The translations under genes and the position numbers were made by a program. From Amoebophrya sp. A120 (Eukaryota > Protista > Dinoflagellata): 64,000 nt of DNA. The notes under the pieces were generated by a model. That model was not told the origin of the DNA and did not search any database. It worked only from the letters and a program-made list of their open reading frames with translations. The stretch covers positions 7,942,771 to 8,006,770 of the forward strand of contig CAJINV010000004.1 of NCBI GenBank assembly GCA_905178155.1, given 5' to 3'. Positions 967 to 64,000 of this stretch are shown one piece after another (the stretch's first letter is position 1; every line of letters starts with the position of its first letter).

Positions 967-1816
967 ATGTCGAGCTCCGGTGACAAGACTGCTGCTGCTG
1001 CCGCCCAGCAGAACCCGTTGGCCCACCTTCCAATCCCGCCGTTTCTGACCAACAAGGAGCAGCCGATCGGTATAATTTTGGTGAATTTGTAATGCATGTC
1101 ATGCATAATATTACAAAAGTGGCTTTTGCATGACAGAAATCGGAAAATGCACGCGAAATATTAAATCAACCCTACTCCTCCAGGTTGGGCCTTCTCCTCT
1201 TTTCTGGAGTTTATCATCGACAGCAAGCGACTCTTATCAAATGCAAATATGTCTGGGTCTGGAAGAGTCCGAGATTTGTCATGCAGTTTTTCCAAGCTCT
1301 CCCACGTCTGGAATGCAGGGCCTAGCGCACAGGGTCTGCAGCCCCTTGGAGGTGATGCCGACCCTGCATAAGAAATGCTCTCTCAGCATGATGGCTAGAA
1401 GTGTGGGCACCTTTTCTTGCACGTCATGCATCACAGATCTTTGTGAGATCTGCACCACGCATCACAAGTTCGGATCCTCCCTGACCCAGACATGTTTGCA
1501 GTGGATAACCCTTGCAGCGATGCACCAAGCCGGACGCGCGGGAATTCAAGAAGATTTCGGTGGCGTGCGCTATCGGCTTCGCGATTATGGGCTTCATCGG
1601 GTATAATGTTGTCTACTAATATGTCTTTGGCGTTCTTTTGCATGAAAAAAATTATTTTCAAACCTGAAACAGCATGACAAATTCAATTTTTATTTTTGCC
1701 GATGAAATTTGTGATGCTATTTATGCTAGCTGCATTACTTTTGCAATGCATACAGGTACGTCGTCAAGCTGGTGTTCATCCCGATCAACAACATCATCGT
1801 CGGGATGGGAATGTAA
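967..1816 (+). CDS. SEC61G: Protein transport protein Sec61 subunit gamma (4 exons)
   Basis: Spliced product ...[58 protein letters not shown] matches the Sec61gamma/SSS1 consensus. Introns: 1070-1183 (GT-AG), element 1235-1507, 1601-1755 (GT-AG). Confidence 0.95.
1235..1507. mobile_element. Intronic TIR element, family A (TIR ..GCAAAAATGTCTGGGTCTGGAAG)
   Basis: TAT..ATA; DR ACTCT/ACCCT. Confidence 0.9.
1602..1752. mobile_element. Decayed element, now a GT-AG intron
   Basis: Ends TTTTGCAATGCATA; CGGG/CAGG. Confidence 0.6.
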
Positions 1817-3040
1817 AACGGGATCAGAAATTTAGTACTTGGTTTGAGCAAAAACTTCATTTCGCGCACGACCGGAAGCCCATCGTACACAGTTTCACCC
1901 AGCTGTTGAACTTAGCCAGCACACGATCTGCTCTACGTAGGAGCCGAGAACTACAGAAGCACGACTTCTTGCGGCCGGGTACATCAGCGATATTAACCAC
2001 AACCTGCGGCATCATCTACCAAAGTAGATGGCGCTTCTTCTTCACAAGAACAGGTGCTATAGCTATGACGACCGACGAGCATGGTGCGAAGGAGCCTGGG
2101 TCATGTTCGTGGGCTGAAGCAATGAATGCAACGCCGTAGTATTGAAGAGCCCGTTTCAAAATGTAGTTTTTGTACCCAAAATAAGATGAACCACGACAGC
2201 ACTAAGCGTGTATCACAAATTCAATGTTGATTTTGTATCCACAACGCATCATGTAGTGCAATTACCAGATGTAGTTCATGTGTTTAGAAAACACGACCTA
2301 TGTACTATCACTCTATCAGTATCACTAACACTGTCACAATTTTACACTTGTCACTTTCACACTTTTCTGTTCACTTTCGAATCTACTCCGAAAGAATGAC
2401 TCTGATGCACTACCCTGATTTGTATTTGAAGACTTTTACTACATTCGCAACACTGTTGTAGCAAAGCAAGCACTTGTTCTACCCAGACCAAAATTTCGAA
2501 GAAAAAGCTGTTCTTGCAGCTGCGCAATTTAGCGAAAGCACAGGCTCCTGTGCGCTGCCATCGTCCTTGCAAGGGACCTTGCTTTAGTGTTTCGATGTGC
2601 CCTGCTCAACTCTTTGTCGCTCGACCTCGAATGGGGAAGCCTCTGTAAGAATATCTTGCCTACCCCAGTTTCAACTAACGGTTTGTTGCAAAAATCCGTC
2701 GTTGCATCGTGAACAACGACACATAGAGAGCGAGCTGCATCTGAGTGCCAACAAGGGAATGGATTGCTGTGATCGGAAGTAGAAGTAGACACACTACTTA
2801 CTCCGGGTCGAGAGAGACGAGTTTTTTCGTGGGAGGCGTCGTACGGGCTGGTGACGCATGATATGACCATTGAGTGCTAGTTTCGTCTCGATTTCTTACC
2901 GCATGTTTTTTTACTTCAATGACAAGTCGCTTGCGCTTCTTCTTCTAACTAATTAAACCGCAAATATTTTTTGTACAGGCAGTCATTGTAGGTAGTCAGA
3001 ATGGAGCTTTAGTAGGTACTTCTAAGTTTTATTTAGACCC

Positions 3041-62200: not shown

Positions 62201-64000
62201 TCTGTTGCAGAATAAGTCAAGGAGTTGCACTAAGACCGCCACGCACAAACTAAACCTTTAAGTTGTCGCTGTGCCCCAGGTGGGTTGCCAGTCAGCAGTG
62301 ACAAACAACTGGCCAATGGTTTGACAACTACGGTCCGCGGCACTTGCCTTTTTCGCCGGTGCCGCAGGTAAGGCACAAATGGTCCAGCCTCCCCTGTCTG
62401 GGCGGGGTTGCGGCTTAAGGGAGAGTCTCGCCCCTTAACCAAAGGGGTACGTCGTCTCTTCCGTGAGAACAAAAACTTATGGCGTAAAATGGGTCGGGTC
62501 CTGGATCGTTCTGTATGTTGGGCTGTCGCGCTCGGCTAGCTGGCCGGGCTGTACTGATCAGGTGTGGTGGGTAGCTCCCGACTGGTTGGTACTTTTATTG
62601 GGGCGACTTGCCGTGGTAGCGCTCGGCTTTTGTATGATGAGGTCGCCGAAAGTGCCTCCTCGCCCACCCCCCCGGGGAGGGGATCCTTGACCTGTGGCGC
62701 TGGGAGCGGGTGTCCACTACATGATGATGATGAATGCGGGTCCCCATGAGAGGCATTTCTAGTCGTGTTTTGGAATTTGTAATGCTGGAAACAGGATAAG
62801 CAGATGGATTTTTGATGTATTTGTCCTTACGAAGCTGCACTACACTACGGACTGCAACTTGTCATGCGTGGCGCCCAAAACTTCTAGATTTGTGCTGCTA
62901 AGTTCCCAATTTGACGATGGGGTGGGGACAGTTTTACACAGGATATTGTGCCCGAGTTTTTCACGGGCATCCGCAAACCCTGCCGTGGGGTTTTGCTGTA
63001 CGGACCGCCGGGGACAGGAAAAACGATGTATCAAATGCAAATATGTCTGGGTCTGGAAAGAATGGGATTTGTGATGCTACTCTTCTATGCTGCAAAACCC
63101 TGCGTTGCATGAGCAGCAAAAGGCGCTTGAAATTTTGCCACTCGAAGCGGGCATTTCTCATGCAGGATAGGCATGAGCAAGCCTTCGCGAAACGTGTGAT
63201 GCTAGAGCATGCATTACAGGCAACGCGGGTCATGTACAACTGTGCATGACAAACTCCTCCAATCTTTTAGACCCAGACATATTTGCACTTGATACGATGC
63301 TGGCGAAGGCGATTGCCTCGACCGCGACGTATCCTGTGCAAAAGTATCGTACTCGTATTGCAGTCATGCATTACAAATCTCCTTCTTAAGGTAAATCTGC
63401 ATCACAAATTTTATTTCTGTTGCTGAGGAAATTTGTAATGCATTTATACGAGTACTACGATACTTCTGCAAAGCATACCTCGCTATGTATTGCAAATATG
63501 TGTGGGTCTGGAAGATTGCCAGATTTGTCATCCTTGTCTGACATGACTCGGGGCTCTGTCATGCGTAAGTGCAAAATGATCGTTTTGTCTGTGATGCAAA
63601 AGCGCAGTGTGCCATGCGGAATACGCTACTTACACATAGCAGCTCAAGAACTTGTCATGCTTGGCCACGTATGTTGACAGTGCGCCCAGTACTATTCCGT
63701 GGTTTGCATCACAAGTTTCCAGACCCAGACATGTTTGCATTTGATAGACGGAGTCCGTCGCGTTCTTCAATTGCAGCTGCGCGACGTGTATCCTGTGCAA
63801 AAGTATCTGATACTCGTATTGCAATCTTGCATTACAAATCTTTTTCTGAAAGATAAATCCGCATTACAAATTTTATTTCTCATGCTCAGGAAATTTGTAT
63901 ATGCATTTATACGAGTACTATAGTTTTGCAGTTCATAACGCTGACGAGCAAGTGGCGCGGCGAGTCGGAGAAGTTGTTGCGAGCTTTGTTGTATCCTGTG
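59257..64000 (+). CDS. Katanin p60-like (KATNAL2-type) meiotic-clade AAA ATPase, runs off the window
   Basis: [56 protein letters not shown]...[24 protein letters not shown]. Confidence 0.9.
59465..59757. mobile_element. Intronic TIR element C
   Basis: DR CGGAC. Confidence 0.92.
60735..61787. mobile_element. Intronic TIR element A carrying a nested foldback
   Basis: DR GGCTA/GGCCA; splits GGLEMA|KTAINE. Confidence 0.92.
60962..61758. mobile_element. 797-bp foldback (whole-element palindrome) with family H termini, nested in the 3' TIR of a family A element
   Basis: TATAGCCTGCTCAGCTGTTACA...TGTAACAGCTGAGCAGGCTATA; DR TCCAG/TCCAG; perfect 80-bp central palindrome at 61321-61400. Confidence 0.92.
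61895..62733 (+). mobile_element. Spliced-leader-headed retrocopy or SINE-like insert inside a family C element
   Basis: Structure is polyT + SL ... (ATG)4 tail; family C sequence resumes on both sides. Confidence 0.65.
61907..61926 (+). other. Relict dinoflagellate spliced-leader sequence
   Basis: CGTAGCCATTTTGGCTCAAG equals the last 20 nt of DinoSL (DCCGTAGCCATTTTGGCTCAAG); preceded by T12. Confidence 0.9.
63029..63294. mobile_element. Intronic TIR element A
   Basis: DR CGATG; splits GKTM|LAKA. Confidence 0.93.
63330..63477. mobile_element. TIR element B (first of a tandem pair)
   Basis: DR CGACG/CCTCG. Confidence 0.88.
63484..63746. mobile_element. TIR element A (second of a tandem pair)
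   Basis: DR CTCGC/GACGG (decayed). Confidence 0.88.
63789..63937. mobile_element. Intronic TIR element B
   Basis: DR ACGTG/ACGCT. Confidence 0.88.
63992..64000. mobile_element. Start of a further element (TATCCTGTG), truncated by the window edge
   Basis: Terminus identical to families B/C. Confidence 0.7.

Follow-up and report, generated by a model that had tools for sequence, protein, structure and literature searches.

Transposon-derived introns of Amoebophrya sp. A120 and a probable fixed register for their removal

The window analysed here is a 64,000-nucleotide stretch of contig CAJINV010000004.1 of the dinoflagellate Amoebophrya sp. A120, whose plus-strand genes are interrupted by short elements with terminal inverted repeats (TIRs). 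These elements, and the way in which they leave the transcript, are the subject of this report. The gene at 967-1816, which we take to be Sec61-gamma-like, contains one element and two GT-AG introns. The Mqo gene (25703-30225) contains 10 elements and three GT-AG introns, and its spliced model equals the annotated A120 protein P0001. A frame of 1683 codons at 47257-56340 is restored by taking out 16 elements with 5 nt each. The AAA ATPase gene at 59257-64000 carries seven top-level elements, and its spliced model equals the annotated A120 protein P0004 over the window. All four lie on the plus strand. Three exons of the window match, with 100% identity, proteins recorded under the name Amoebophrya sp. 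A120, and the elements are therefore equated with the introner elements described in that strain (Farhat 2021; PMC7789003).

Terminal scans and curation by hand yielded 87 TIR elements of 137-1112 bp between 1235 and 63937, 85 of them top-level and two nested, lying in both orientations within the plus-strand genes. They start with TAT (85 elements) or TAC (two, one of them at 6625-6935, plus strand), end with ATA (86) or AAA (one, at 8680-8896, plus strand), and are flanked by a 5-bp target duplication. The repeat copies differ at 0, 1, 2 and 3 positions in 63, 18, 5 and 1 elements, respectively, so that at most one mismatch is present in 81. TA..TA pairs that combine terminal complementarity with a 5-bp repeat (at most one mismatch) numbered 79 in the window and 2-10 in five dinucleotide shuffles of it. 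When neither a motif nor a repeat length was prescribed, 48 flush 5-bp repeats were recovered at the ends of inverted repeats, and 40 of these fell at TAT..ATA. An earlier note on this DNA had described about 89 elements running from TAT to ATA between 5-bp direct repeats; the pattern is confirmed, at a curated count of 87. Its figure of at least nine families is not firm. Clustering of the termini gave seven multi-member groups and five singletons, and seven to nine families are supported because two of the groups each contain two TIR types. All seven internal-sequence clusters with more than one member contain both orientations. As the note had stated, most elements permit no GT-AG intron wherever the cut is placed in the repeat; such termini can be attained for only 7 of the 85 top-level elements. 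Element lengths bunch near 150, 210-240 and 250-280 bp.

The element class is already known. The available text of Farhat 2021 (PMC7789003) describes A120 introner elements with inverted repeats of 8-20 nt, composed of a TAT start, variable bases and a run of A, and with direct repeats of 3-5 nt, of which one 5-bp example is given. It reports strain-specific spread, no A120 transposase, and a splice position relative to the hairpin that is variable or unknown. The snRNAs U2, U4, U5 and U6 and 83 of 89 spliceosomal proteins were found in A120, and U1 was not. The window elements agree with this description in their inverted repeats, in a 5-bp repeat that lies inside the published range, in their absence from transcripts, in being mostly non GT-AG, in yielding no transposase and in their strain-specific spread. 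The earlier note was right that the class is not new and overstated the novelty of the pattern, since the initial TAT, direct repeats of 3-5 nt and one example of 5 bp were already in print. The parts of Gozashti 2025 (PMC12130899) that bear on A120, including all 58 A120 rows of its supplementary file 8, describe the introners as TIR DNA elements of 150-320 bp with splice mechanisms that vary by family. Family 38 is labelled Ginger ("5-bp TSD, TA/TA termini", where TSD is target site duplication). Family 65 is Mutator-like (8-9 bp TSD, GG/CC), and the 5-bp rule is therefore not universal in A120. The automated TSD calls in that file spread from 2 to 11 bp across families, whereas 5 bp is seen here in every family. 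The donor counts annotated there show symmetry between NT donors and AN acceptors; they look driven by the aligner and were not used. A fixed splice register, a shared internal motif, a spacing pattern and proof by empty sites do not appear in the available text of Farhat 2021. The literature searched, mostly outside subscription papers and figures, held no statement on register, motif or spacing in Amoebophrya. These three features, namely the fixed register, the internal motif across families and the 30-90 nt spacing of neighbours, were thus not found in print, and the earlier note had not noticed them either.

One terminal motif, used to scan metagenomes, picked out at least 165 loci from one assembly (582 kb with overlaps), and the loci listed carry the same element families as the window. 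An exact 5-bp repeat flanks 275 of their 365 elements, and exact flush repeats of 3, 4, 6, 7 or 8 bp occur in at most seven. Locus L037 is the orthologue of window positions 18401-20715, at about 90-95% identity. Its alignment shows one element shared at the same site (19429-19720, plus strand), two found only in the window (19844-20095 and 20331-20546, both plus strand) and three found only in L037. Each of the five empty sites holds a single copy of the 5 bp, which demonstrates 5-bp target duplication and recent mobility. For the two window-only elements the empty site equals the left repeat copy, and at 20331-20546 base 4 of the right copy is derived. The two strains also hold different family-1 elements only 8 nt apart (19800-19850 in the window, 1410-1690 in L037), which suggests an insertion hot spot.

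With their TIRs, target duplications evident from empty sites, lack of coding capacity and many copies, the elements have the features of miniature inverted-repeat transposable elements (MITEs). They are non-autonomous copies of DNA transposons with a 5-bp target duplication. No transposase was recognised by Pfam match among 14 selected frames of the window, in line with the earlier note, or in the 127 locus frames of at least 230 aa. Viral contigs contained no TIR matches and no Mqo relatives, and Rfam gave no match. The note had ascribed all families to one transposon superfamily with a 5-bp duplication. Transposon origin and duplication length stand; a single superfamily is conjectural, no transposase having turned up in these frames. 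As far as the available parts of two reports describe them (PMC6839031; PMC2836005), GingerRoot elements have TA...TA termini, a 6-bp duplication and an integrase-like enzyme, and Ginger2/Tdd elements have an integrase-like enzyme as well, with 5-bp duplications in Tdd-4/5 and TGTNR as the Ginger termini. The window elements share TA...TA termini with GingerRoot but not its duplication (6 bp in one of the 365 locus elements), and they share the 5 bp of Tdd but not the TGTNR termini of Ginger1 and Ginger2/Tdd (TAT in 350, TGT in 3). An integrase-like transposase of the Ginger/GingerRoot type that mobilises all families and binds their shared internal motif on DNA would have about an even chance of being correct. 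It is a best guess and not a classification.

Removal from transcripts was followed in four contig runs labelled "RNA?", from one sample of one study, aligned to 1150-9230; none of the runs listed as containing this DNA is recorded as RNA. These contigs skip two GT-AG introns in this region, and in three of the four runs coverage drops to zero between genes. All 14 top-level elements in it are skipped: 12 at joints listed (six more joints were not displayed), that at 7968 by piece arithmetic and that at 4748 by length. Among the joints listed, one run adds four junctions in 40000-59900, two of them past a stop codon. At all 18 elements with a displayed junction, the element plus 5 nt is missing, as measured directly for 17 and by length for 4748. 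The 17 direct skips span six terminal groups and one singleton in both orientations, include the TAC start, the AAA end and a nested pair, and can in no case be GT-AG. When every element is deleted together with 5 nt, 10 gene segments with 69 elements acquire full open frames. Deletion with 2 or 8 nt has the same effect, and other lengths break the genes with many elements. Use of both mimic sites, equal to the element plus 2 nt, was rejected: it keeps frames open, but the RNA gives 5.

The earlier note had predicted that transcripts would neither retain the elements nor use GT-AG sites, and the 18 displayed junctions, 17 of them measured directly, agree. Its proposal that deletion of an element plus one repeat copy restores conserved motifs is seen for Mqo and the AAA ATPase in P0001 and P0004, and for the KRL/LQR motif of Sec61-gamma in the RNA contigs. 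The annotation may share the RNA data and hence lend no independent support. Two raw RNA read runs gave just 8 and 4 partial reads. The note had also proposed one precise processing system; precision and a single rule across families and orientations hold. Multi-copy element ends at 3580-3849, 5470-5739 and 7630-7899 have high summed depth in RNA-type contigs, which could be pre-mRNA or stable excised introns. Past the stop codon of the 1683-codon frame, two elements at 56628-58149 (plus strand) are removed as the element plus 5 nt in one RNA-type contig that continues for 2.5 kb beyond it (56340-58882), either a long 3' untranslated region or merged transcripts.

Where the two repeat copies of an element differ, the position of the cut can be read as k, the number of left-copy bases kept. 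Four RNA junctions on the plus strand are clear. The element at 1235-1507 (mismatch at base 3) is spliced from 1232 to 1511 in all four runs and keeps the left base, so k is at least 3. At 5634-5959 (mismatches at bases 2 and 5) the joint from 5630 to 5962 is a hybrid of both copies, with k of 2-4. The element at 7486-7913, in which another element (7511-7772) lies 25 nt in from the start, is removed as a whole with its guest, and the joint from 7484 to 7918 places the cut after base 4 or 5 (k at least 4). The degenerate element at 8940-9133 (mismatch at base 4; joint 8938 to 9138) gives the same bound, again with a cut after base 4 or 5. Only k=4 satisfies all four. Coding constraints add further bounds. 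For the element at 63789-63937 (plus strand; mismatches at bases 4 and 5) k is at most 4, since a cut after base 5 would give Trp at the Leu of 4/4 proteins. A protein comparison or a stop gives at least 3 for the element at 63330, and a stop codon gives at least 1 for that at 45673. In the second strain, a stop in the predicted frame of locus L018 gives at most 4, and a Rab gene at L050 gives at least 4, with Ala at 34 of 57 readable sites and Asp at 3 among 150 homologues. All four polarised mismatches, at bases 2, 4, 2 and 3, have the derived base in the right copy. The cut thus probably falls behind the fourth base of each repeat copy, one letter ahead of the TAT at the start and four letters beyond the ATA at the end, which would make the intron N-TAT...ATA-NNNN. 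Register 3, first suggested by Sec61 and AAA, is ruled out by the junctions at 7486 and 8940; register 1, with ATA-N as a TAG-like acceptor, fails at all four clear junctions. The codon-likelihood polarity of repeat mismatches was too weak to use. The first repeat base falls at the three codon positions 137, 85 and 68 times among 290 elements (loci L001-L165), and register 4 would give 47% phase-0 introns. The annotated protein P0003 begins downstream of the element at 36886, the site that would discriminate best between registers.

At register 4 the 85 window elements have the donor dinucleotides GT (33), AT (20), CT (17) and TT (15) and an AG acceptor in only six, so that the GT-AG termini of U2-type introns are lacking in most. 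The 15 GT-AG introns of the window, which were picked by eye, have a GTAY donor in 11 (one start is 1 nt off), and at k=4 the TAT of an element occupies +2 to +4, the place of TAY in these donors. Strand was called by a codon model, correct for 71 of 72 window elements, in 290 of 332 locus elements, which with the 85 window elements gives 375 oriented elements. T is present at +2 in all 375 and TAY in 372. The ten 5' deviations affect the third base in eight, seven of them TAC, and the 5' T is invariant. The nine 3' deviations affect the inner A at -7 in only one (Fisher p 0.005 for the asymmetry). Such an asymmetry in a symmetric transposon end argues for RNA-level reading of the donor and perhaps of a branch A. 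Predicted folding is strong, with long terminal stems, a median z of -7.4 and 81 of 82 elements below -2. In family 1 the left and right ends covary significantly at 2-3 of 13 positions, perhaps owing to subfamilies. Remnants of elements are found in 3 of the 15 GT-AG introns. The one at 1601-1755 (plus strand; RNA joint) starts G-TAT and contains the right end of a family-2 element (BLAST E 2e-19), and a predicted one at 23526-23712 (plus strand; boundaries by eye) has a family-2 remnant (BLAST E 3e-23). An AT-AG intron at 20726 was dropped, as its gene may stop at 20732. At 63330-63746 (plus strand) two elements with overlapping repeats lie 6 nt apart, and the frame requires a net 1-nt exon at 63478-63483, which suits intron-by-intron definition.

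These features can be joined in one mechanism. Pairing of the TIRs would bring the intron ends together in place of U1 and U2AF, TAT would be read as +2 to +4 of a GTAY donor whose first base is free, and the acceptor would be measured off at 4 nt beyond ATA, the inner A at -7 being a possible branch point. Taken jointly, these steps seem slightly better than an even proposition. Catalysis by a relaxed spliceosome of the U2 type, which the hairpin would guide and which would act on pre-mRNA at one fixed register, is favoured by analogy with Fritillaria borealis and with the fixed branch-to-acceptor distances of Giardia and Trichomonas. In the accessible parts of two reports (PMC13326754; PMC11282704), Fritillaria non-canonical introns are MITE-derived with TIR and TSD, are mostly non GT-AG and need the U2 spliceosome. 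The A120 elements resemble them in origin, repeats and termini. They differ in that Fritillaria retains U1 and prefers AG-AC and AG-AT ends, whereas the terminal bases look free in A120, where U1 was not found. The reading as a whole, in which non-autonomous transposon copies are removed by a relaxed U2-type spliceosome at a fixed register, stands at about even probability.

Several observations weigh against this reading. The chance that four junctions share any one register is 0.33, and 0.028 for register 4. Behind a 10-nt exon, the element at 4748-4902 (plus strand) is removed with 5 nt by length, and its joint (4485 to 4902 with three letters between) has k of at most 2 at face value. This possible exception is ambiguous, as the left exon is too short to align and a one-mismatch run-through gives the same output. 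Repeat mismatches are synonymous in 43 of 85 cases where about 40% is expected (the frames are predicted and two rows have a miscalled strand), which may mean some slippage of the cut. At 63484 the A25 protein carries the residue expected from a register-5 cut, which is not decisive. The first three of these points would suit removal of exact length by a cut at any position of the 5-bp repeat, with chance or a mild preference behind the agreement on base 4, as would the variable or unknown splice position of the published description. Such freedom appears distinctly improbable: three cases demand at least 4 and three at most 4, all four polarised mutations lie in the copy that would be intronic under register 4, and long single contigs pass through mismatched junctions. 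Spliceosomal removal also has difficulties of its own. Acceptor dinucleotides are random, though the chemistry of the spliceosome puts constraints on the two terminal bases of an intron. The second strain shows no preference for G before TAT (97 vs 89 of 290, p 0.53), and selection for it, suggested in the window (p 0.03), was dropped when it was not repeated there. A branch at -7 would be one base nearer than in Giardia and inside a predicted stem. The "RNA?" runs, being contigs from one sample, lose rare forms, and no lariat, circle or transposase was observed in the data at hand.

A structure-guided nuclease and ligase, independent of the spliceosome, could excise the hairpin at the same register, as proposed for the nonconventional introns of euglenids. 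The accessible text on these introns (PMC6221363; PMC11282704) describes pairing of +4 to +6 with -8 to -6, a Y/R junction preference and circular products. Terminal pairing, predicted here, would likewise join the junctions of the A120 elements, which also share TSD-like repeats and a longer 3' overhang. They differ in that +2 pairs with -5 at register 4 and the junction bases are unbiased, compared with +4/-6 and Y/R. The strong stem, the unconstrained first and last intron bases, the tolerated 1-nt exon and the lack of a U1 match in A120 (Farhat 2021) would all fit this route. We nevertheless think it unlikely, because the 5' end accepts TAC like GTAY donors and keeps U at +2, and because GT-AG introns with element remnants, one of them G-TAT, suit one machine better than two. 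Excision could also take place in DNA at some life stage, as with the internal eliminated sequences of ciliates, so that transcripts would come from cleaned DNA. TA termini and one retained repeat copy do resemble DNA elimination. A genomic-type contig run, however, passes from exon through element to exon at an even depth of 27-33 (15 of about 2465 joints listed), and RNA-type contigs contain element ends joined to flanks of other loci. With the cut lying inside the repeat, off the transposon ends, and the elements polymorphic between strains, this explanation is very improbable. Stable hairpins with short direct repeats are a known substrate of reverse-transcriptase artefacts, and the data are contigs derived from cDNA. 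That the skips are mere jumps of the enzyme is still scarcely credible, since frames of up to 1683 codons open only after removal, the spliced proteins agree with homologues of other organisms and the 5634 junction has just two shared letters.

A further feature is common to the families. The consensus internal motif AAYYTGTNATGC spans them (for example at 48816, 48864 and 48903), and the core of TTGTNATGC is present in 83 of 85 elements. The 22.0 kb of elements contain the 9-mer TTGTNATGC, in either complement, 186 times and the 2.9 kb of GT-AG introns 13 times, compared with none in 20.7 kb of exons and one in 18.4 kb of intergenic sequence. AAYYTGTNATGC was found in 8 of the 15 GT-AG introns. 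In 68 pairs from several families, two copies on the same strand are separated by 31-33 bp; copies within a family are not independent. In five clusters comprising 160 of 396 elements, the motif has a lower rate of private substitutions than other positions (81 of 5678 vs 342 of 17137, p 0.005), a mild conservation after insertion, and the terminal triplets have the lowest rate of all (5 of 960). The motif is independent of orientation and has helical spacing, which suggests that a DNA-binding factor recognises it. A strand-specific RNA signal was rejected, as family 4 has a single motif orientation yet inserts both ways. In both strains the distance between neighbouring elements is most often 30-90 nt and seldom under 30 nt. 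There are 19 exons of 40-60 nt, where uniform placement would give 8.6 (p 0.0006, for a bin picked after seeing the data). A factor that binds AAYYTGTNATGC at a spacing of three helical turns would mark all families and their GT-AG descendants, would steer insertions to 30-90 nt from one another and may recruit splicing. A splicing code defined by the hairpin, with free terminal intron bases, the donor N/UAY and an acceptor 4 nt from the stem, combined with one such factor, is put forward tentatively and falls somewhat short of an even chance.

The elements are known and here confirmed, and a probable hidden rule makes the question of their excision testable. If the splicing code proposed above is true, any insertion that duplicates 5 bp, in either orientation, would be a perfect intron at birth. 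Published splice borders are guesses of the aligner within the repeat, and a fixed register would settle where tens of thousands of introns really begin and end. It predicts both the donor and a possible branch point, and would be the first rule on the removal of these introns that can be tested. Should the spliceosome act without U1, GT or AG, the known chemistry of splice-site choice would be widened and the tolerance of massive insertion into exons explained.

A few observations concern single elements and the surrounding sequence. From 31000 to 34000 the window holds an intergenic block without elements, in which long frames have no Pfam match and GC content reaches 65%. The element at 61834-62945 contains about 840 bp of unrelated sequence (61898-62740) with two frames that gave no Pfam match, and the final 170 bp of this stretch agree with locus L035 at 98%. 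A near-palindromic element of 797 bp at 60962-61758 is 89% self-complementary, has its own 5-bp repeat and is nested in the right TIR of the element at 60735-61787. It is without the internal motif, and its termini are like those of family 5. At 11303-11456 an internal duplication or insertion stretches a family-5 element to 390 bp.

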